A DNA stretch of 64,000 nucleotides from a virus (Duplodnaviria > Caudoviricetes). A program made the position numbers and the translations under genes. Positions 2,526-41,958 of this stretch are shown here, piece by piece. The stretch covers positions 32,001 through 96,000 of the IMG/VR virus record IMGVR_UViG_3300037692_000137. One strand, given 5' to 3'. Within the stretch, counting starts at the first letter, position 1. Each line of letters opens with the position of its first letter. The notes beneath the pieces were generated by a model. The model was not told where the DNA came from and searched no databases. It saw only the letters and a program-made list of their open reading frames with translations.

Positions 2526-2611
2526 TGGAGCCTAGAGAGGGATTCGAACCCCCGATGTGTTTTACCACGACAGCTTACAAAACTGCTGCTATACCCCTTA
2601 GCGATCTAGGC
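2526..2611 (-). tRNA. tRNA-Thr(UGU) with an unusual long variable arm
   Basis: Acceptor GCCTAGA/TCTAGGC, U73, encoded CCA; anticodon loop TT-TGT-AA; T-loop TTCGAAT; 16-nt variable region. Confidence 0.85.
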
Positions 2612-2639
2612 CTATATATATATTAAAGTTAGTTAAAGC

Positions 2640-2714
2640 TGGGAGCAGCGGCAGGACTCGAACCTGCATAACCAGGGATATGAGCCCTGTGAGAAGCCAT
2701 TTCTCAACGCTGCG
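2640..2714 (-). tRNA. Initiator-type tRNA-fMet(CAU)
   Basis: C1xU72 mismatch, A11-U24, anticodon stem CAGGG/CCCTG (three G-C pairs), loop CT-CAT-AT, encoded CCA. Confidence 0.88.
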
Positions 2715-2725
2715 TCACATTTTTA

Positions 2726-3028
2726 TTAGCCGTTCCTCAAAAAGAACAAATGATTAAAAAATTCAAAATTTATTTTTTGAAGATACTCAGAGGGTGATTC
2801 AATGTCAAGACCCAGCTGGTCAGCTATTACCTGAGTCATTACTTCATCCTGTAAGTACTGCTGATTAAAATTGTAAAATTCATACAAGTCTTCATCAGAT
2901 AGACTCTCCATGTGTGCCTTCCATGCCCCTTGACAGGTAACACAGACATAAGCAGAGTTGTCGTTGTTATTAATACAATTAGGGTCTGAACATTCAGGGC
3001 GAAAATCTAAATAATCTGGTGCTATCAT
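2726..3028 (-). CDS. Hypothetical protein (Cys-containing N-terminus)
   Basis: ORF track, 100 aa; SD-like GAGG upstream. Confidence 0.55.
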   Translation of the reverse strand: MIAPDYLDFRPECSDPNCINNNDNSAYVCVTCQGAWKAHMESLSDEDLYEFYNFNQQYLQDEVMTQVIADQLGLDIESPSEYLQKINFEFFNHLFFLRNG

Positions 3029-3068
3029 GTGTTAGTCCTCGGTAAGGTTATGTTTAATGCTATTAAGC

Positions 3069-3323
3069 TTATTTACCATAAGTTAACATGTTTGGTAGTA
3101 TTTCATCGTTATTAGACATTGAAACCAGTTCATCTTCTAAAACCTGTGTCCAATATGGTTTACTTCGTAAATAAGATATAGCTGCTGCATAGTCACGCCC
3201 TACCCCCAATTCTTGTGCTACTTCTTGAACTCTACCACAAAATACTCTGTGGTTATTAACAGCTGCTGCGTCTAATGTTACCAAGGACTCATTTATCGTA
3301 GGCATACTTTTAAACTCCTTCAC
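3069..3323 (-). CDS. Hypothetical protein
   Basis: ORF track, 84 aa; directly downstream of a consensus promoter. Confidence 0.55.
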   Translation of the reverse strand: MKEFKSMPTINESLVTLDAAAVNNHRVFCGRVQEVAQELGVGRDYAAAISYLRSKPYWTQVLEDELVSMSNNDEILPNMLTYGK

Positions 3324-3367
3324 TTAGTTTTTAATAATTCTTAGCCTTAATTACCAAACTGGTTAAT

Positions 3368-3396
3368 AGTATAACATACATTAACTGAGTTGTCAA
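3368..3396 (-). promoter_or_regulatory. sigma70-type promoter
   Basis: TTGACA-17nt-TATACT with extended -10 TG. Confidence 0.8.
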
Positions 3397-3399
3397 TAG

Positions 3400-3837
3400 C
3401 TACTTTATATTTAATTCAATGTCAATAGTGTTTAAATAAGATGTATACTCATCTAAACTATTTAAATTATTTAATAACTCATTATGCTTTTTACATTCTT
3501 TTATGTGTTTGTAAGTACCATCACAGCGGCAGGTTCTACCACATAGCTTACAATCGCAATAATCCACCGGATAATTACCTTCAATACCCCAGCTACCTCC
3601 GTTATAATATTCATATCTGGTTTCAGTATTTTCAAAAAGTAGCACGCGTAATCTTCTAAAAGCTACATTCTCAGGGTAATTATTAAATAGCTCATGTGAC
3701 CAGTGCGGGACTAACTCTTCTATAATAGCATTTTGTATATGGTCAGGTAAAGAGTCAAACATTTTTACTACTATATCTTTAAGCGTTGCTTGTGCAAACA
3801 ATGTTTCTTTTGTGGGTATAGCCATGATTAACCTCAA
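3400..3837 (-). CDS. Hypothetical protein with Cys cluster
   Basis: ORF track, 145 aa; CDCKLCGRTCRC. Confidence 0.6.
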   Translation of the reverse strand: MRLIMAIPTKETLFAQATLKDIVVKMFDSLPDHIQNAIIEELVPHWSHELFNNYPENVAFRRLRVLLFENTETRYEYYNGGSWGIEGNYPVDYCDCKLCGRTCRCDGTYKHIKECKKHNELLNNLNSLDEYTSYLNTIDIELNIK

Positions 3838-3841
3838 GTGT

Positions 3842-4093
3842 TTAGTAATCTACTGTGTAGCTTTCAACAAATAATATGGACCTAATTGGTATTAACATAG
3901 TATCTACTTCTATAAAAGTATTATCATTATTATGATCCGCTATTACTTCTAATGGGTTACAATTTTGATTCCTGGATCTACCTGAATTACGTGAAATAGA
4001 TAAATAAGTACATGTAGTGCCTAGTAAATCTACTTTTAACCCATTAAGTAATACTAATCTATAAGCGTACATTCCATAACTCCTTATTATCAA
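3842..4093 (-). CDS. Hypothetical protein
   Basis: ORF track, 83 aa; AAGGAG SD, overlaps upstream stop. Confidence 0.55.
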   Translation of the reverse strand: MIIRSYGMYAYRLVLLNGLKVDLLGTTCTYLSISRNSGRSRNQNCNPLEVIADHNNDNTFIEVDTMLIPIRSILFVESYTVDY

Positions 4094-4302
4094 ACTTTAA
4101 TTGGATCTGGCTCTTTTAAACCCCAACATTCTAATTCGTACTCATATAAATAGCCTATCACTTCTTCTGGCTCGTTAGGATGCTCTAATTTAATTTCTTC
4201 TAATGTTTTAGGACGGTATTCTCCAGGCTTATCCCCGTAAGCTTGTTTCATTAATGTCTCATCTCGTGCTTCACATAAACGCATAAACCAGTTTTTAATC
4301 AT
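4090..4302 (-). CDS. Hypothetical protein
   Basis: ORF track, 70 aa; AGAGG SD. Confidence 0.55.
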   Translation of the reverse strand: MIKNWFMRLCEARDETLMKQAYGDKPGEYRPKTLEEIKLEHPNEPEEVIGYLYEYELECWGLKEPDPIKV

Positions 4303-4319
4303 ATTAGCCTCTTTAAATC

Positions 4320-4426
4320 ACCCCCTCCTCCAAAGTCTGCCGTAGTCACTCGACTTCGCTCTGATATGTAATCAGAACCGGGATGTTTATCCCGCTAAGG
4401 AGAAGGGTTAAGTAAGGGGGTTGTTG
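4320..4426 (-). ncRNA. Candidate multibranch structured RNA directly 3' of tRNA-Tyr
   Basis: Closing helix CCCTTCTCC/GGAGGAGGG enclosing hairpins CGGGAT-AAAC-ATCCCG, TCTGA-TTACATA-TCAGA and AGTC-GAGT-GACT. Confidence 0.4.
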
Positions 4427-4513
4427 TGGAGAGAGGAGGATTCGAACCTCCGGGTTCAGCACAACGGCGGTGGTTTTACAGACCACTCCCTTCAACCGCT
4501 CGGGCATCTCTCC
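4427..4513 (-). tRNA. tRNA-Tyr(GUA), CCA not encoded
   Basis: GGAGAGA/TCTCTCC acceptor, loop CT-GTA-AA, long variable arm, followed by CAA. Confidence 0.92.
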
Positions 4514-4546
4514 ATTTTTATGTTTAGTAGCATAGCATAAAATTAC

Positions 4547-4834
4547 TTAGCCGTCAATAGTTTCTTTTAATATTAAAGTTTCTAATAATGGCGGCAATTG
4601 ATTAAAAGAATTTAAAACTACCTCCCCAGTAGCTACATTTTTTGTTTCTATATACGTAGAATACGTAGTACCTCTATTAGAGCCTGCGTGTTTAATTGGA
4701 ACAGAAAATGTTATTTTATCTCCAATTTTTAGATCTTTAAATAAACGGGCCTTAGTTTTACGTAGAATTTTTGCTACTACTAATATGTTGCTTTTTAATA
4801 GTATATCATTCATTTTATACTCCTTAATAAACAT
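4547..4834 (-). CDS. Hypothetical protein
   Basis: ORF track; likely true start MNDILL behind AAGGAG. Confidence 0.55.
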   Translation of the reverse strand: MFIKEYKMNDILLKSNILVVAKILRKTKARLFKDLKIGDKITFSVPIKHAGSNRGTTYSTYIETKNVATGEVVLNSFNQLPPLLETLILKETIDG

Positions 4835-4861
4835 ATTACTTTATTGTGGTATATGTTTATT

Positions 4862-4890
4862 AGTATACCATACGCTGTAATCATTGTCAA
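4862..4890 (-). promoter_or_regulatory. sigma70-type promoter
   Basis: TTGACA-17nt-TATACT with extended -10 TG. Confidence 0.8.
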
Positions 4891-4891
4891 C

Positions 4892-5395
4892 CTAAAATCT
4901 TTTTGGTATTAAATTAGGGTTGTCCGGTCTATTAGCCATTATCTCCGTAAGCTTGGTAAAAGATACGGGATAAAAATTATTGTTATCTACACCAACATCC
5001 CAACTCTTACCAATAGGCGGTAGTTTGCCATGACTGTGCCCGTAAAGATTCCAACTATTATAGTGACTCGCATTCCATACTCGTAAACTATAATGAGAAC
5101 AAACTATCTTCTGTCCTTCAATAGTACGTTCCCAAATATCACCATAGAATTTATCCTTTTTATGGTCGTGATTACCGCGAAGAAAGACGTGGCTACCATT
5201 AAGTTGTCGCACATATTTCTCACGTGGCTGAAAGCTAAAATCACCGACGTGGATAACCACATCCCCATCCTTAACTACTTCATTGTGTCTACGTATAATT
5301 TCATCATTCATTTCTTGCACATCTTTGAAAGGCCTATTTAAGTACCTAATTATGTTACTATGCCCGTAGTGGCAGTCACCGCTAAAAAAATACAT
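4892..5395 (-). CDS. Calcineurin-like metallophosphoesterase
   Basis: DCHYGH, GDFS, GNHD, SH, GHSHG motifs. Confidence 0.88.
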   Translation of the reverse strand: MYFFSGDCHYGHSNIIRYLNRPFKDVQEMNDEIIRRHNEVVKDGDVVIHVGDFSFQPREKYVRQLNGSHVFLRGNHDHKKDKFYGDIWERTIEGQKIVCSHYSLRVWNASHYNSWNLYGHSHGKLPPIGKSWDVGVDNNNFYPVSFTKLTEIMANRPDNPNLIPKRF

Positions 5396-5398
5396 AGC

Positions 5399-6034
5399 TT
5401 AATACCTCATCCATTGTTTCTTTTTTTTAGTACAATCTTTCCAACAAGTAGTATGAGAGTCACCTCTATGCATATCATCCCACGAGTTTGGTAAGTTCTT
5501 TACATTCCTACAAGCTCGCACATAGGGGTTACACCCACAACTTAGCCGGCGTTCTTGTGTTGTTTTGGGGCGCTTATAGTATTGATTAAAATGCCACCTT
5601 CTTTTTCTTGTATAAGGAACAGGCCCATTACGAAAACCTAACCATTCATACTCTTTAAACCTGTTACGTTTAGTATACTTTTTAGGCACATAATTGTCAA
5701 GATCTTTTTTTATTTTTTCTGTGTTTATTACCCTAAAATTAGCATCTAATAAGATAAGCTCTATCTTATCTTTGACATCTTTACCTAACCAACCACCAGG
5801 CTTCTCAGGAACAAAGTGGATGTAGGTGTCATTCCAGTTGTTGCCAATGTTTTGTGATAACACCGTAGCAATACTTTTTGGGCGAAAATATTCACGTAAT
5901 GTTTTTCTGTTAGGATCAAGCCATTGGCGTTTGCGGTATCTAGCTAATAAAAAGTCTGCGTAAGATTTGAACTCCTCATAGTTGTTATCCCTATCAACCA
6001 AATAAACTCTTACATCTTTATTAATTGTGTGCAT
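5399..6034 (-). CDS. Basic hypothetical protein
   Basis: ORF track, 211 aa; C-terminal LPNSWDD...CWK..KKKKQW; AAGGAG SD. Confidence 0.65.
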   Translation of the reverse strand: MHTINKDVRVYLVDRDNNYEEFKSYADFLLARYRKRQWLDPNRKTLREYFRPKSIATVLSQNIGNNWNDTYIHFVPEKPGGWLGKDVKDKIELILLDANFRVINTEKIKKDLDNYVPKKYTKRNRFKEYEWLGFRNGPVPYTRKRRWHFNQYYKRPKTTQERRLSCGCNPYVRACRNVKNLPNSWDDMHRGDSHTTCWKDCTKKKKQWMRY

Positions 6035-6115
6035 TTAGACTCTCCTTTAAGTTAAAGTTAATAAACTTAAAGGATGTCTTGTACGTAATAGTATAGTATT
6101 TTATGTTTCATAATA

Positions 6116-6352
6116 TTAATCTGTCTCTAATAGTAAATTTGTATAGTAAACTAATTCTTTTTTTACTCCGGCCATATAACAACCCTTACCATGTCTACCA
6201 TCTATACTTATTTGTACATTTGTTTTGTCACACCCTTTACAAAAAGGATATGGATTAGGGGGTTTGGTGTACCATGAGTCATACAATTTACTTTCTAATT
6301 TACGCACCCTATCTTGTAGCCTCTCGCGTGTACTCATATGGTTGGCCTTCAT
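6116..6352 (-). CDS. Hypothetical protein
   Basis: ORF track, 78 aa; AAGGAG SD; CxxC. Confidence 0.55.
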   Translation of the reverse strand: MKANHMSTRERLQDRVRKLESKLYDSWYTKPPNPYPFCKGCDKTNVQISIDGRHGKGCYMAGVKKELVYYTNLLLETD

Positions 6353-6407
6353 GTTAACTCCTTTAGCGCAGTTTATTTAACTCAAAGACAGTGTGCTTAT
6401 GAATCAA

Positions 6408-6493
6408 TGGCGGAGGAAGTAGGATTCGAACCCACGGAACTTTCGTTCAACGGTTTTCAAGACCGCCGCCTTCAACCACTCGGCCATTCCTCC
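6408..6493 (-). tRNA. tRNA-Ser(UGA)
   Basis: GGAGGAA/TTCCTCC acceptor, G73, CCA, loop CT-TGA-AA, long variable arm. Confidence 0.95.
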
Positions 6494-6500
6494 TGCTCAG

Positions 6501-6548
6501 TATAATATAGGCTACTAGAGTCTAACCCCTCTAGTAGCCTATATTATA
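6501..6548. terminator. Perfect 20-bp inverted repeat downstream of the cytochrome gene (terminator or processing stem)
   Basis: TATAATATAGGCTACTAGAG-8nt-CTCTAGTAGCCTATATTATA. Confidence 0.6.
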
Positions 6549-6575
6549 TACTTAATTACCTATTAACTTACATAA

Positions 6576-7370
6576 TTACTTTGTTGTATGGCATCTGGTA
6601 CAAGTGATATTACGTTTTGCATGTGTATCATGAAGTCCGCTATTCCAAGTTTTCCTACTGTGGCAGGTGCTACATAAGTTTTGCCACGGAGTCATAATAA
6701 AACCAGTAGGGTCAACGGTACCTGTATCCGGAGTAGGGGTAGTGCCTGTGTCCTCGTCAACTCCATCTTTTACTTCACCCGAGCCCACTTTAACGTGACA
6801 GTCCAAGCAGCCCTGATGTATAAGGTATTTCTCTTTCTTAAAACCAGGCGTTGCATGTGGATAATGACACATTTTACATGTTATAATATCCCCCTTTAGC
6901 AGTACAGCGATACCTCCTCCAGACACAATATCGTCACCACTCATTGGGTCTTTAACAAACCCCCCATTTCCGTCAGCTACTTTTCTACCATTAAATAAGA
7001 AGTCGTATTGAGCACAGATAAACTTGTCGAATGCAACCACCGAATCCTTCCCATTATGACAGCCTCTGCATACACCAACACCCTCACGCTTTACTCTCTC
7101 ACCATGATTTACTCCGTGTGCGTTGCCGGGTGATGGTAAAAACTCAGTAACAGTTGAACCTGAGTCTGGACATTCTGGACAAACGGGGTCCGGACATTCT
7201 GGACAAACTAGATCTTTGCATTCCTCGCACGGAGGACACTCCTTAACTTTCTTTTCTTGTTTATAAGACTCTCTATCGCGTTTATGCTCATCATCCTTAG
7301 CAATAGACGTACCCACCACCATAAAACTAAAACAGATTAAGATTGTTATGATACTTAACAATTTATTCAT
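6576..7370 (-). CDS. Secreted multiheme (five CxxCH) c-type cytochrome
   Basis: Sec signal MNKLLSIITILICFSFMVVGTSIA; CRGCH, CKMCH(YPH), CLDCH, CSTCH, CTRCH; six additional His; GGAGG SD. Confidence 0.9.
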   Translation of the reverse strand: MNKLLSIITILICFSFMVVGTSIAKDDEHKRDRESYKQEKKVKECPPCEECKDLVCPECPDPVCPECPDSGSTVTEFLPSPGNAHGVNHGERVKREGVGVCRGCHNGKDSVVAFDKFICAQYDFLFNGRKVADGNGGFVKDPMSGDDIVSGGGIAVLLKGDIITCKMCHYPHATPGFKKEKYLIHQGCLDCHVKVGSGEVKDGVDEDTGTTPTPDTGTVDPTGFIMTPWQNLCSTCHSRKTWNSGLHDTHAKRNITCTRCHTTK

Positions 7371-7510
7371 GCGTTCCTCCTTTGTTTTGTAATTATTTAA
7401 ATAGAGTTTATGTTGTTCCTATCCATACCAACGGTTAGTTTGTTATGAATAAGCATTAAATCCTGCTTCTAACTATAGGTAGCTTACTTAAAACGTTAAG
7501 TTACAGGTTA

Positions 7511-7538
7511 AGTATAACACATTTAAAAATATTGTCAA
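7511..7538 (-). promoter_or_regulatory. sigma70-type promoter upstream of the cytochrome gene
   Basis: TTGACA-16nt-TATACT; the -35 box overlaps the TGA stop of the radical SAM gene. Confidence 0.6.
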
Positions 7539-8482
7539 TTGCTTTTAAGCTTTTTAAGTAAAAATTGTCCACATGCTGCTTTTATCTCTGATCCAGTAGA
7601 CACCTGATATTTTAATTTATTAACACTTTTTGAAAGTGTATCTACTATAATATTAAATTTCTCCGACTCTTTAAAAGCAGAGCCCCCACAAGAATTAAAA
7701 CGTAAAATACGCAATTCCTTATTATGATTAATTGGACTAGTCATAAAAGTAATAAGCCCTTTAATCTCTTCTAAGTAGTCATTACGTAGGTGTAAAAAAA
7801 CCTGGTGATATATTATGTCTACACCAGCTAATGCTGAAAGAGTACTTAAATCAGCCACAGCATTTATTATAGGTACGGTACCAGGTATCAAATTATTACG
7901 TGTTTTTTGAAAAGTAGAATGTAATGAATAGAATAACCTAAAAGGGCTTCTACCATCAACGTGTTCTGGATTAACATCATACACTTTTAAAGCTGAGTTC
8001 AAGTCTATAAATTTATTAAAATAAATATTTTTTACATTAGGGTATACAGTAGATAAGTCTACTCCATCCAAACCTTTTGCATAACCATTAGCAAAAATCC
8101 AGTTAAGTACGTTTATAGAAACCTGGTATACAATATCCCCATGAGGTAAAGCGTCGCCCATACCCATCCAGGAAAATTTTATATACTTATCTTTAAGTTC
8201 AGGTTTATGTGCTACTTCTGCCGTTATTGCATCTTTAACATTTTGCTCTATTTGTTTAGCAGTTAATTTTGTATAACCACATTTCTTTAATGTTAGGTAA
8301 CAAAAAGCACAATTCATAGCACACCCTGCTGATATAGAAACAAACACAGAGTACTTATTCCTAGCTGTTGCTGTTACACCAACTATGTTATTACAAGAAC
8401 TTACGGTTTTTATAGCGGTTTCTGAGCCGTCGTTATGTATGTACTTAGTCACTTGATTGTCCTTTGTTCTATAAACTTCCAT
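7535..8482 (-). CDS. RlmN/Cfr-like radical SAM protein
   Basis: VSISAGCAMNCAFC (CxxxCxxC), MGMGDA, SLHS, C-terminal IKAACGQ. Confidence 0.85.
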   Translation of the reverse strand: MEVYRTKDNQVTKYIHNDGSETAIKTVSSCNNIVGVTATARNKYSVFVSISAGCAMNCAFCYLTLKKCGYTKLTAKQIEQNVKDAITAEVAHKPELKDKYIKFSWMGMGDALPHGDIVYQVSINVLNWIFANGYAKGLDGVDLSTVYPNVKNIYFNKFIDLNSALKVYDVNPEHVDGRSPFRLFYSLHSTFQKTRNNLIPGTVPIINAVADLSTLSALAGVDIIYHQVFLHLRNDYLEEIKGLITFMTSPINHNKELRILRFNSCGGSAFKESEKFNIIVDTLSKSVNKLKYQVSTGSEIKAACGQFLLKKLKSN

Positions 8483-8609
8483 AAGTAAACACCCCCGCCC
8501 TAACTATGGTTATTAATAAAAAAACGGCAGAGAAAAGTGGCTAAACTATTTTTTGATTTCTGATTAATAGTCAGAATGAAGTAAGTATAGCCTACACTAC
8601 TGTCGTTTG

Positions 8610-8684
8610 CGCTGTGTACAGGATTCGAACCTGCGAGTTGCCGACTAGAAAGGCCGGTGTCTTAAACCACTTGACTAACACAGC
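8610..8684 (-). tRNA. tRNA-Glu(UUC), CCA not encoded, U37
   Basis: GCTGTGT/ACACAGC acceptor, G73, loop CT-TTC-TA, followed by CAA. Confidence 0.85.
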
Positions 8685-37533: not shown

Positions 37534-38349
37534 CTAAATTACCTCTTTTTGCGTCTCTTTCCACAAGCCGTAGCCAGCAAGAACTTCATCCTTCGTTGGA
37601 TATTTACCACAACTACGTAGTTTATTCTCAGAGCAGTAACCCGCTTGTTGGCATTTTGGCCCAACATTTTTAAAAACTACGGGTAAAGCCTCTTTACATA
37701 GGGCCAGCATCTCATTAGCCACGATACGAATTTCCCATTGTGATAATGTACAACAACGCAGGCCAAAGAAGTGTATTAAACTAACACAATTTTTTGTAGT
37801 TACAAGTCTAGTAATAGCAGCATTGGGCATAAGGTAACGAGCGTCCTCGCTCTTAATATGCAACCCTTTAAGCTTATTATACGCTTGTTGTATATACTCT
37901 AATGTATCAACATAAATCTGTTTAGCTTCTTCATTTTTAGCTATAGAAGGTGGAATTACAAAATTATTGATATCAAACTCCCCATCATTAGCCACATACC
38001 TTTGGGACTGCTGGGAATAGCTAGCCATGCGGTGACGTACATGTTGATGGCTATCAGCACGTGATATACCATCAATAGCAAATGTAAATTTCACATGTTC
38101 GAGAACACTTGTGTGTCCTGATTTAAATAGATGGTTTATTAAACCCTCTATTTCTTTATCTGTACATAAGTGGCCGTCTTTATTATCAGTGATTGATACG
38201 AAGCCTTCCTCATCTTCTTGCCAGGAATCCCCAACCCAGCCCTCAGAATAGCACTGTCGGCCGGCAGCAAATAATAGTTTTTCAGCATTAGCGGAAACAT
38301 CCAGTAATTTAATTCTTAGCATATTGTAACCTCTAGCCACCAAAACCAC
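37534..38349 (-). CDS. thyX: Flavin-dependent thymidylate synthase
   Basis: GHTSVLEH, SRADSHQHVRHRMASYSQQSQRY, ARYLMP, FFGLR.....QWEIR. Confidence 0.95.
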   Translation of the reverse strand: MVLVARGYNMLRIKLLDVSANAEKLLFAAGRQCYSEGWVGDSWQEDEEGFVSITDNKDGHLCTDKEIEGLINHLFKSGHTSVLEHVKFTFAIDGISRADSHQHVRHRMASYSQQSQRYVANDGEFDINNFVIPPSIAKNEEAKQIYVDTLEYIQQAYNKLKGLHIKSEDARYLMPNAAITRLVTTKNCVSLIHFFGLRCCTLSQWEIRIVANEMLALCKEALPVVFKNVGPKCQQAGYCSENKLRSCGKYPTKDEVLAGYGLWKETQKEVI

Positions 38350-38551: not shown

Positions 38552-40102
38552 TTAAAACGTCTCTGCCTTTATAACATTACTAGTTTGTTGTGCTGCTACT
38601 TCAACTGTCTTAATTTTTTGTGAAACTATAGACTTAGATAAAGCATCAAAAGTTTTAACCCAAATATTACCAACCGCTGTTTGCCAATCTAAGGTGCCTG
38701 TAACAAATTTATACGCCTGTTCCGCCTTAGTCGTTGCCTCTTCATAATTATTATACACATGTAGCATCTTGTCGGTTAGATCTTCTACATCGACTAGCGG
38801 GCGTCTTACCTCGTTGTCATAAGGAAGTACTGTCCATAGGCTGGGGTTAGTACCACTTTTTACAAGGTAGCCCACATCCTCAGTAATATTTTCTATCATT
38901 GCGGTGTTTCTAGGCATAATAACGGGTGTTCTAGTGGCCATGGCCTCTATCCAGGAAAGCCCCCAACCCTCACCAAGGCTAGCACTAATTACGCAGTCAA
39001 CACAATTATATAACATATTAACTATCTCTCTCGGATAGCCTTGGTTAGGTCCAAAGTTCTGAGGAAATATTATGTCCTCTGATAGACTAAAATCGTATGC
39101 TCTGCAAACCTCTGGTAGATTCCAACCTTGATCTTGTTTAGCCATATGTAAATACAGTAAAGTGTTTGGTTCCTTTTTACGTAACTCATAAAATGCTTGA
39201 ATAGTTCTAGGAATATCTTTACGTTGCTGATTTCTATTTAAATTCATGTAGATAAACTTATCTGAGTGACGGCCAAAATAGCGTTTTCTAAAATCAATTA
39301 CTTCCTCACTAGGCAGCGGTTTAAACTCACTAGTATTAACCCCATGAGGGATTACAGACATGTTGCCAACAATTGGATATACTTCTTGGCATAGCTTTCT
39401 TCCAAAATTAGCATAGGTAACTACCTCATCACAAAAACTAATGTTCTTTACCCATTCTGGTTTTGGTGTGCCGTCAATAGGAAAGTATACTATAGACTTA
39501 AAAGGTGTCTCCCTGTTCTTTTTAAGATGTGGTATTAGCTCAGGTAAAAAGTCTAATATGAAACTATCCTGCATAAAAAACAATATATCAAAATCCATTT
39601 TGGGAATCATGTTGACAATCTTTTTACGGCCGTACGGATCTCTTTCCGCATTATTACCAACGGGCCAAATCCTATACGGAAAATTATGAGGATCGCCCCA
39701 GTAGTTTATACCCAGTACTTCAATGTCATACCTGCCAGTTCTGTGTAGTGCCTCTAAAACATTACGACTAACGGTACCAAAACCTGTTGCCAAATATCTT
39801 CGCATAAGAACGTTACTTCTTATACCGCTCTATTAGAGCTGCTGCATGTTTCCATGCAAGTTGAGACTATATCATCGACCACTTGGGCCGCCACGCGCTT
39901 CCACTCACTTGAGTGTACTTCCTTTCGGAATAGTCGTTGTACCTTCCTCTATAAAGAGGCTTGGCTCAGGATTGTCCTCGACTTGACGTTAGGAGTTTCC
40001 CTGAATTCACGTAGTTATTCGATACACATTGCTGTGTAAAGCTGCACATTATTTACAGGTAGGTGTATCCATGTAACATAAAATTTTAGTCTTTCTTTCC
40101 AT
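38552..40102 (-). CDS. GT4 glycosyltransferase split by a group I intron (exon 1 40102-40055, exon 2 39790-38552)
   Basis: The spliced product reads MERKTKILCYMDTPTC|ATGFGTVSRNV in frame; AAGGAG SD before 40102; NRNQQRKD, EGWGL..IEAMA. Confidence 0.9.
39791..40054 (-). ncRNA. Group I self-splicing intron, 264 nt, no internal ORF
   Basis: Exon ends in U with a P1 U-G pair to GCAG; core AATTCAGGGAAAC (P), AATCCTGAGCCAAG (Q), CAACGACTA (R), GATATAGTCT (S; P7 GACTA/TAGTC); GNRA-capped P9; terminal G. Confidence 0.92.
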
Positions 40103-40111
40103 AAAATCTCC

Positions 40112-40801
40112 TTAATTGTTTAATAATCTTTCACGATTACACATTAAAATTGAATACCAATTCTTGTGCCAAGTTCTATCTGTATTAGCACGAGAATTGC
40201 AACTTCTACATATAGTTATTAAATTAATAGGTCTACAGTCTTCCTTATCATAATTTATATGATGTATGGTTAACTCTTTAGTTACGCCAAAGCAACAAGG
40301 ATTCCTACAAATATTGTTATCCCTGTATTTTATAGCTTCTTTGTAAACTTTATCTTTCCAAGCGTCACAATAAGGTTTTAATGATACACCTCCTTTCCAA
40401 CTAGGGTTACCTGAACCAGTAATTTTAATAGCATGACAAGTTGGACACCTATAACCACCATTATTCCAATCTGTCCATGTCATAGTGTGTACATGCCCTA
40501 AAGGGCATTTGTATTCTAATTTAGTTTTCTGATTAGTGTACTTATCTGATAGTAAGGTGTACCCTTCTTTCAGCATAGCTCTACATATTGTAATCAAAGT
40601 GCATTTTATATTACCAGCACATTTAGCACACCTATGCCCATTTAACCAGTTGCTCCAACTTATAGAGTGTGTATGTCCTTTAGGACAAATATAAGTTAGT
40701 TTTTGTAAATTGTTAATATAAACACTACTCAATAGTATGTAACCTTCCGCAGCAAAGGACTCTCGTACATACCCATAAGTTAAGCGTTTACCTGAAGACA
40801 T
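40112..40801 (-). CDS. Free-standing HNH endonuclease with Zn-ribbon repeats
   Basis: CPKGH..W..GHRC..C repeats; NPSWKGG; IHHINYDK.....NLITIC.SCN. Confidence 0.85.
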   Translation of the reverse strand: MSSGKRLTYGYVRESFAAEGYILLSSVYINNLQKLTYICPKGHTHSISWSNWLNGHRCAKCAGNIKCTLITICRAMLKEGYTLLSDKYTNQKTKLEYKCPLGHVHTMTWTDWNNGGYRCPTCHAIKITGSGNPSWKGGVSLKPYCDAWKDKVYKEAIKYRDNNICRNPCCFGVTKELTIHHINYDKEDCRPINLITICRSCNSRANTDRTWHKNWYSILMCNRERLLNN

Positions 40802-40803
40802 TA

Positions 40804-41958
40804 TTATTTCTTTAGTTTACGCACATCTAAGAAGGGCGTTGTAAAATTTACTGTCATACTGTCTAGTATTTTAGCCTTAGCTGCCGGGTTTTTATCCATA
40901 TACTTTTCGACATCCGACTTATTCAATGACACCATATTCAGTAAATACTCTGGTGGTACTATTTGTTTAACCGCGCTAATATCATAAGTGGCCCTACTAT
41001 TTTGTCTAACATAAACTTCTTTACCCTCTACTTGCACATTTAATCCAGTAGTCTTTATACGATCCATTAGAAGTAATGACAATTCTTTTTCGCGCATCTC
41101 ATATATTTTTTTCATTTTTTTAATTTGCTGCCATTCATCTACTAAAGAGTTATTGTCTAAACGATAGGCTTCTTGGAATTTACCGTTAGAGTTTGTGTAG
41201 GCTTCTTTATACGCATTACAATACTCTCTAAAGTCACACCATGGACAAAATGTATTTAACGATGCCTTTACATCTTTTTCTTCTAAACACACCATTGCAT
41301 CATATACTAATTTAAGATACTCGGAGAAAGCTGCACGCTCTTCGGGTGTACGATAAGAGTATAACATCTCATGCTTTAATAAGTCAAGACTAACTATGAT
41401 ACGTTTTCCAGGCCATAGTATACTGGCTACTAAATCATACATAGATAATTGCTTATCTGTTTTCAATTGATCTGGTGTAGGGGCTGTTTTAGATGTTTTA
41501 TAGTCTACAATTAAAATAGTATCTTCATCTACTTGTATTACCTTATCGATAGCACCTAATAAGGGTACCCCTTCTTTGGTAACTACAGCGTCGCCGCCCC
41601 TATAACCAAATGGGGTTTCTAAACTTATAATCTTATGCCCTTCAGGAATGAAGTCATTAATTCTATTTGTTACTAACTCTATACCAGTTTGGTGTACTGA
41701 AAAGTCATCAAGTCCTTCTTTTACAGATGTTTCTTTAAACTTATTAATAATAAGCTCTTTATCTTTTTTACTAAATTTCTCCTTCTTCCGCCAAATATTA
41801 CCAGCTAGTTCTAAAGCCACGTGAACAGCTGTACCTAATTTAAACACCGGGTTATCTATTTTAGGCAACTTATCATAGTAGTTAAACCAGTATCTTTGCT
41901 TACACTGTAAAAAAATACTTATACGTGTAGCACTTATTTTAATATTATTATTTGCCAT
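40804..41958 (-). CDS. PD-(D/E)XK (RecB-like) exonuclease
   Basis: IS.....QC..RY, GAIDKV..IVDYKT, QLSMY, CPWCDFR..C. Confidence 0.85.
   Translation of the reverse strand: MANNNIKISATRISIFLQCKQRYWFNYYDKLPKIDNPVFKLGTAVHVALELAGNIWRKKEKFSKKDKELIINKFKETSVKEGLDDFSVHQTGIELVTNRINDFIPEGHKIISLETPFGYRGGDAVVTKEGVPLLGAIDKVIQVDEDTILIVDYKTSKTAPTPDQLKTDKQLSMYDLVASILWPGKRIIVSLDLLKHEMLYSYRTPEERAAFSEYLKLVYDAMVCLEEKDVKASLNTFCPWCDFREYCNAYKEAYTNSNGKFQEAYRLDNNSLVDEWQQIKKMKKIYEMREKELSLLLMDRIKTTGLNVQVEGKEVYVRQNSRATYDISAVKQIVPPEYLLNMVSLNKSDVEKYMDKNPAAKAKILDSMTVNFTTPFLDVRKLKK

Follow-up and report, generated by a model that had tools for sequence, protein, structure and literature searches.

A probable group I intron without an open reading frame splits a glycosyltransferase gene of an uncultured phage and lies beside a free-standing HNH gene

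We analyzed a 64,000-nucleotide (nt) stretch of DNA, hereafter the window, that spans bases 32001-96000 of a 234-kb uncultured phage genome from IMG/VR (record IMGVR_UViG_3300037692_000137, ~89% complete) in which nearly every gene lies on the minus strand. On that strand the window carries a glycosyltransferase (GT) gene in two exons, separated by what is very probably a group I intron without an open reading frame (ORF). Exon 1 (40055-40102, -), whose start at 40102 is preceded by an AAGGAG ribosome-binding site 7 nt upstream, has 16 codons with the translation MERKTKILCYMDTPTC, and homologs run the same motif straight into ATGFG. Exon 2 (38552-39790, -) has 412 codons plus a stop and begins ATGFGTVSRNV. 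The intervening 264 nt (39791-40054, -) were assigned as an intron from an Rfam match, intronless homologs, homologous introns in the related loci L002 and L003, and an alignment with the orf142 intron of phage Twort. Directly upstream of the GT is a free-standing gene for an HNH homing-endonuclease-like protein (40112-40801, -), which ends 10 nt before the GT start codon; the GT gene also adjoins thyX and further GT and methyltransferase genes. Excision of 40054-39791 would give a product of 428 amino acids (aa). The intron reads AAA TAA right after exon 1, so that an unspliced RNA stops after one codon. The false start discussed below excepted, no ORF of 30 aa or more was found on the intron's own strand.

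The boundaries of the intron were placed by comparison with homologs that lack it. A protein search with exon 2 returned 942 homologs, and N-termini were compared in the 120 listed. More than 100 of them, nearly all, are intronless and read K(I/V)KVLAYCDSPTC-ATGFGTVSRN uninterrupted, with K(I/V)xVLxYxD(S/T)P(T/S)C as the general motif directly before ATGFG; homolog P0004, for example, is 73% identical and starts MNRKLRILCYMDSPTCATGFGTV. In DNA sequence, nothing is inserted in L005 and L006, the nearest relatives without the intron (73-74% identical), which read CCT ACT TGT/GCC ACA GGT where the window has CCT ACC TGT[264 nt]GCA ACA GGT. The in-frame joining of DTPTC to ATGFGTVSRN, claimed in the original prediction from the window alone, thus reproduces the junction of the intronless homologs. 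Given that a U has to close the exon and a G the intron, only 40054-39791 restores the invariant Cys-Ala junction, and the coordinates given in that prediction are therefore exact.

The alternative that there is no intron at all, with the gene starting at an internal ATG at 39805 (MRRYL) and the 16-codon upstream frame being an unrelated small ORF, has next to no chance of being correct. It can appeal to the ORF list, which opens the GT at this ATG within the intron (38552-39805, -), and to a few database proteins that start at or near ATGFG. However, those short proteins stem from loci that have the intron themselves, and the N-terminus ending in D(S/T)P(T/S)C is present in more than 100 homologs, with its KxLxYxDSPTC strand fused directly to ATGFG, rather than the MRRYL start that would have spoken against an intron. 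Furthermore, no Shine-Dalgarno sequence precedes 39805, whereas AAGGAG precedes 40102, and the Rfam match to the intervening sequence has an E value of 9.5e-20. The listed start is therefore a mis-start, as the original prediction had called it.

The Rfam model in question, RF00028 (Intron_gpI), matches 39842-40064 (-) along its full length (model positions 1-253) with 83.5 bits, against a curated gathering threshold of 50 bits, and this is its sole match in the 234-kb genome. The structural parts that had been proposed from the sequence (a U-G pair in P1, a short P10, the core and the terminal G) were all located. P1 (40042-40058, -) pairs exon CUGU and intron A (40058-40054) with the internal guide UGCAG (40046-40042), placing the U.G wobble at the 5' splice site between exon U40055 and G40045. 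A P10 of 3 bp is available between the GCA of the 3' exon and UGU just 5' of the guide, and the intron's terminal G is 39791. The catalytic centre (39865-39935, -) is bounded by the 5' strand (39935-39931) and the 3' strand (39869-39865) of P7. Within it lie P7.1 (39930-39919), P7.2 (39915-39902), the 3' strand of P3 (39897-39891) and P8 (39890-39876), all on the minus strand and assigned from Rfam, the fold and pair counts. The 3' peripheral hairpins (39802-39859, -) were taken from the fold and comprise P9 (39859-39842), P9.1 (39839-39827) and P9.2 (39825-39802). An unaided minimum-energy fold recovers P2, P3, P4, P5, P6, P6a, P7.1, P7.2, P8, P9, P9.1 and P9.2 (z = -3.6). In the same fold the end of exon 1, ACCUGU (40055-40060, -), pairs with ACAGGU at exon-2 positions +4 to +9 (39782-39787), to which it is perfectly complementary; this may be chance within conserved codons.

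The subgroup can be read from the hairpins UUCC-GAAA-GGAA (P7.1) and CACUC-AAGU-GAGUG (P7.2), which occupy 39930-39902 between the 5' strand of P7 and the 3' strand of P3. Such P7.1/P7.2 hairpins mark subgroup IA and are absent from IC3. The intron also aligns end to end with the Twort orf142 intron, from a ribozyme for which a crystal structure has been solved. Based on these hairpins and on this kinship, the intron is best classed as IA2, the phage type. Introns 2 and 3 of Twort orf142, the tail tube gene, belong to this subgroup (PMC10136302), which is heterogeneous (PMC11878797), and both self-splice (PMC10136302, PMC3984707). Like them, the window intron is ORF-less and ~250 nt long and has a helix set with P7.1, P7.2 and P9 extensions. 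Identity to Twort orf142 is ~72% over positions 1-209. The two are alike in the AAAUAAU start after the exon-terminal U and in P2 and P9, near-identical in the P4, J6/7-P7, P7.1 and P7' strings, and have in common the R region GUGCAACGACUA-UUCC and the S region AUAUAGUCU. They differ in the internal guide, in the P8 and P9.1/P9.2 sequences and in the host gene, which is a GT here and the tail tube protein gene in Twort. Moreover, Twort is a herellevirus of Staphylococcus, whereas the phage described here is uncultured, has a 234-kb genome and comes from sediment or freshwater.

A nucleotide search found a similar core in 311 phage records, including Twort orf142/tail tube, staphylococcal endolysins, terminases of Pseudomonas KIL, Aeromonas and DSS3_VP1 phages, and the DNA polymerase of Pseudoalteromonas phage pYD6-A. 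These matches bear on the likeness to the cyanobacterial/plastid tRNA-Leu intron type that the original prediction had seen in the P and Q strings, and that claim did not hold up. An origin in this IC3 lineage would be suggested by the generic P, Q, R and S strings, which are common to all group I introns and carry nothing specific. In contrast, P7.1 and P7.2 are present between P7 and P3', the alignment with the Twort IA2 intron covers the whole length, the host is a protein gene, and the top nucleotide matches are all introns of phage protein genes, with no tRNA-intron relative among the 311 phage records. We thus consider an IC3 origin highly improbable. In addition, IMG/VR contains IA2-like introns that split SU10-type major capsid genes, a 5'-3' exonuclease gene and a gene for the large subunit of ribonucleotide reductase (RNR) (L019:8815-10759 (-); L026:7613-9236; L037:2300-3430; L031:6-2874), and a treble-clef Zn-finger ORF lies just 5' of the split exonuclease gene.

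Homologous introns at the same codon allowed the structure to be examined for selection. One is shared by L002, L008 and L009, whose introns are identical to each other and 90% identical to that of the window (Rfam, 83.0 bits), and another by L003 and L004 (85% identical to the window; Rfam, 106.3 bits). A metagenome scan with the exon-intron junction string returned a single contig of 236 kb, L043, which belongs to the L002 lineage. Pairs were counted in an alignment of the three intron sequences, using the helices of the fold with P1 and the P7 pseudoknot added by hand. Over the 78 pairs, 98.3% of cells are paired, and double-sided (compensatory) changes occur in 11 pairs, located in P2, P6 (two), P6a, P7.2 (U-A to C-G), P8 (two), P9 (three) and P9.2. 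None of 500 shuffles reached 11 compensatory pairs, and slid controls gave 0-1. P7, P4 and P1 are invariant among the three copies and thus uninformative for covariation. Exon position -4, which pairs with a G of the guide, is C in each of the three intron alleles but in 0 of 12 intronless alleles. The ribozyme structure is therefore under purifying selection, and the exon beside the splice site is adapted to the internal guide. The sample is small, with three related sequences, but its pattern is what a working ribozyme predicts.

We also weighed whether the ribozyme is a decaying relic that splices inefficiently, leaving the phage with a GT pseudogene or a poorly expressed GT. Decay after fixation is predicted by the homing-cycle model, and the sister lineage L002 already has a dead homing endonuclease gene (HEG) and one A-A mismatch in P3 of its intron. 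Nonetheless, every core helix is intact in the window copy, its P7, J8/7 and R/S strings match those of the self-splicing Twort ribozyme, and changes between copies are overwhelmingly compensatory. Exon 2, for its part, is open over its full length, retains the EX7E motif and is 73-90% identical to relatives. A relic is improbable on this evidence.

Our combined findings suggest that 40054-39791 (-) is a genuine ORF-less phage intron of the IA2 (Twort-like) type, inserted between the Cys16 and Ala17 codons of a conserved GT4-type glycosyltransferase, and we hold this with high confidence, splicing itself being inferred. The pre-mRNA would fold into P1-P9.2, and exogenous guanosine would attack after U40055, in the U.G pair of P1. 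The freed 3'-OH of exon 1 would then attack after the terminal G39791, aligned by the 3-bp P10. The ligated product ...ACCUGU-GCAACA... would encode the 428-aa enzyme, while unspliced RNA would end at AAA-UAA. Two points weigh against this conclusion. The known intron lineages are just three and all fall in one five-member GT clade, so that both the covariation and the HEG-association counts given below rest on few, related samples. Also, the public sequencing runs that we searched contained no RNA run with this locus, and thus no transcript evidence of splicing. Three wastewater runs labelled 'RNA-Seq' (probably DNA) and one unlabelled run yielded mostly intron cores of other phages, together with a small number of identical pieces that are unspliced and a single contig from a variant allele that lacks the intron (joint 39790/40068, 13 letters being replaced). 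These data indicate neither splicing nor its absence. In the wastewater runs X7, X8 and X11, depth reached thousands solely over the intron core (39844-40071), from many different contigs, because these runs consist mainly of intron cores from other phages; this habitat is very rich in Twort-like cores.

The predicted product of the interrupted gene is a GT-B/GT4-type enzyme. Pfam Glycos_transf_1 is found in the spliced product with 42.3 bits (cut-off 26.4), the N-terminal Glyco_transf_4 match is weak (18.2 bits versus a cut-off of 28.5), the EX7E motif is present in exon 2 as EGWGLSWIE, and PHROG 2170 (glycosyltransferase) matches with an E value of 1e-49. The closest homolog in a cultured phage, Tetrasphaera phage TJE1, is just 39% identical, and hence there is no cultured model for this phage. 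That the GT is conserved and under selection, as the original prediction had implied, is borne out by the homologs: mean column identity is 71% across 24 diverse ones, and many of the 942 are >60% identical. The intron is inserted into the stretch with the least variation, 2-3 codons ahead of the glycine-rich motif with which the N-terminal GT-B domain opens and where the Glyco_transf_4 profile starts. Homing elements choose sequences that are unable to drift.

Gene callers truncate this GT at the false start, as they do its relatives with the intron in public protein sets (P0002, P0005 and P0071). Since the false start lies inside the intron, the annotated protein lacks the N-terminal beta-strand and part of the active-site motif. 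A GT is also, as far as our searches reach, an atypical host, as had been suspected: a 2025 survey describes phage introns as clustering in nucleotide/DNA-metabolism genes and terminases (PMC11878797), our full-text literature searches found no report of a group I intron in a phage glycosyltransferase, and the host genes of the related introns described above are those for tail tube, endolysin, terminase, DNA polymerase, capsid, exonuclease and RNR. Close precedents exist for the type of ribozyme, its lack of an ORF, the logic of its insertion and the HEG nearby. The GT is thus a new host gene for a well-known element type, and the element is not of a new kind.

The free-standing HNH gene upstream of the GT, which the original prediction for this intron did not mention, tells more than any other part of its surroundings. 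It encodes 229 aa with two Zn-ribbon (CapR-like) repeats and a C-terminal HNH domain. The protein matches PHROG 559 (HNH endonuclease; E 4e-17), PHROG 681 (E 2e-18) and Pfam CapR (26.5 bits), while Pfam HNH_3 scores 18.7 bits, below its cut-off of 24.8. The catalytic residues and Zn-binding cysteines at columns H180, H181, N193, C198, C201, N202 and H212 are invariant in 25 homologs and all present in the window protein. A sequence search against solved structures gave no match at E <= 1. In L005 and L006 a 14-nt spacer separates a PD-(D/E)XK nuclease gene from the GT that follows it, and the window's HNH ORF is slotted exactly into this spacer, with TAA-GGAG kept at both junctions. The number of Zn-ribbon repeats varies across the family from 2 to more than 8, and in L058 (956-3358, +) the GT-adjacent HNH forms the C-terminus of an 800-aa ORF with many such repeats and an extra central domain. 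Three more ORFs with Zn-ribbon repeats lie in the phage genome outside the window (101054-101608, 113512-113880 and 148048-148605; 478, 227 and 484 aa) and match only the N-terminal half of the HNH protein; they may be other free-standing nucleases of the family.

We determined the distribution of the two elements over the fetched loci plus 80 IMG/VR GT loci. Intron and intact HNH gene occur together in the window and in L003/L004. The L002 lineage (L002, L008, L009 and L043) has the intron with an HNH remnant (L002:110-460) in which a ~430-bp deletion broke the frame; the remnant corresponds to window positions 40371-40804, and what is left of the gene, its C-terminal 85 codons (87% identical), is out of frame. 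This lineage has kept an intact intron and is the HEG-decay stage of the homing cycle. The HNH gene accompanies an intronless GT in L012, L044, L045 and 12 of the 80 IMG/VR loci (~8 lineages), and ~60 of the 80 (~75%) have neither element. A HEG or its remnant is therefore found in 3 of 3 intron lineages, which are few and related, versus ~12 of 78 intronless IMG/VR loci (~15%).

On the HNH tree, GT-adjacent copies are clustered, with 5 label changes compared to 10.6 in shuffles. The window copy (L001 in this tree, labelled 'other' there owing to its strand although it is GT-adjacent) falls in a six-member clade in which all members are GT-adjacent (support 91/97). Together these results indicate an HNH lineage specific to the spacer between the PD-(D/E)XK and GT genes. 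On the GT tree, the intron is patchy within the five-member clade.

The locus thus has an ORF-less intron and a free-standing HEG adjoining the interrupted gene, an architecture documented for collaborative homing (PMC3984707). By analogy, the intron may have been spread in trans by the neighbouring HNH endonuclease, for which we see slightly less than an even chance. The enzyme, whose cleavage is predicted, would break both strands within or close to the 5' end of GT alleles that have neither HEG nor intron, and repair of the break would then copy HEG and intron both (collaborative or trans homing).

The closeness of the HNH gene could also be a coincidence, with an intron that splices and an HNH that homes independently to the spacer between the PD-(D/E)XK and GT genes, the intron being an immobile vertical passenger or having moved otherwise, by reverse splicing or with an internal HEG since lost. 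We regard this main rival as a serious possibility, if one somewhat below even. In at least eight lineages the HNH gene occupies the same spacer upstream of an intronless GT. The family is multi-copy, with ~28 of 38 full-length IMG/VR matches not adjacent to a GT, and the repeat domain has the three paralogs mentioned above in this genome. On the other hand, coincidence does not sit well with the presence of a HEG or remnant in every intron lineage, nor with the distance of ~60 bp between the insertion site and the HNH gene, which is inside the usual range of co-conversion. This range of HEG-induced repair has been established for T4 mobE/I-TevIII and S-PM2 F-CphI (PMC3984707, PMC2790892).

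Further observations count against spread of the intron by its neighbour. The HNH proteins of the window and L003 are 56% identical and belong to different GT-adjacent clades, in contrast to 85% identity between the two introns; the histories of HEG and intron are therefore partly independent, and their adjacency could be coincidence. In addition, the HEG occurs more often in the absence of the intron than together with it. Finally, a screen for immunity substitutions near the insertion site in intronless alleles with a HEG found no association that survived ~300 tests. Its best leads, exon +13 G to C (Gly to Ala/Ser in ATGFG; 5/9 versus 4/57) and the third base of the Gly codon, had uncorrected p values of ~0.001-0.05 with no phylogenetic correction.

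The GT gene is also entered by other elements. The GTs of L015 (2905-5457, +) and L016 carry a LAGLIDADG intein at GEGWGL/C...VHN/SWIEAM, and that of L058 (3351-5852, +) carries one at LYLH/C...VHN/CAIKDQGW, with Pfam Intein_splicing and LAGLIDADG_3 above their cut-offs. The interrupted L058 gene was considered as a candidate for a further group I intron; none was found in it, and the insertion is the intein. With the intron at one site and inteins at two further sites, the GT gene is a hotspot for homing elements. A 1330-nt Logan contig, L208, begins within a homologous intron (positions 1-100, in which P9, P9.1 and P9.2 align), and its exon 2 starts at TTTGGC (FGTV), which is 9 nt further into the gene than the 3' splice site in the window. 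It may represent the same intron family at a neighbouring site, with the 5' half absent from the contig; a scan of viral contigs for this type of 3' junction gave no match. In L003 (5282-7156, +), the thyX gene beside the GT encodes 624 aa with LAGLIDADG_3 between two Thy1 halves, probably an intein, and the thyX gene of the window (37534-38349, -) is uninterrupted. Elsewhere in the window, Rfam identifies five tRNA genes at 2529-8684 (-), of which three have long variable arms.

An intron, two inteins and a site-specific HNH gene thus converge on a core, strongly constrained gene of a large group of uncultured jumbo phages, and this convergence suggests that the glycan cluster is essential to the phage. 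We tentatively propose, with more doubt than confidence, that the HNH gene and the ORF-less intron work together as a collaborative-homing pair whose target is the invariant stretch that codes for CATGFG in this glycan-synthesis gene, and that related uncultured jumbo phages keep every stage of the homing cycle at this one locus. The stages would be, on the same tentative footing, empty, HEG only, HEG with intron and dead HEG with intron, possibly with the 9-nt-shifted intron of L208, and with inteins at two further sites. If true, this would be the third independent natural example of a mobile intron assembled from separate parts, and the first such pair in a gene for neither nucleic-acid functions nor photosynthesis. 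The locus, with its HNH family of 2-4 Zn-ribbon repeats, is a compact natural series in which the collaborative-homing route to mobile introns can be tested.

As in the polymerase, ribonucleotide reductase, terminase and thymidylate synthase genes targeted by other homing elements, the insertion is in the most conserved coding stretch of a core gene. Unlike in those targets, the gene belongs to a glycan-synthesis cluster and encodes a sugar-transfer enzyme rather than one of nucleotide/DNA metabolism, a setting for which we found no phage group I intron reported. Collaborative homing has been described for the psbA intron of S-PM2 with F-CphI and for the T4 nrdB intron, whose I-TevIII is defunct, with MobE (Zeng 2009 and Bonocora & Shub 2009, as cited in PMC3984707; PMC2790892; PMC6083498). 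Here, as in both of these, an ORF-less or HEG-dead intron lies in a conserved phage gene with a free-standing HEG beside it, and HEG-only, HEG-plus-intron and empty alleles coexist in related phages. The endonucleases differ, in that F-CphI has an Endo VII-like motif and is encoded downstream of psbA, whereas the protein described here is an HNH enzyme of a family with 2-4 Zn-ribbon repeats, encoded upstream of its presumed target. Based on this likeness, we hypothesize that the GT locus could be a further member of the collaborative-homing systems.

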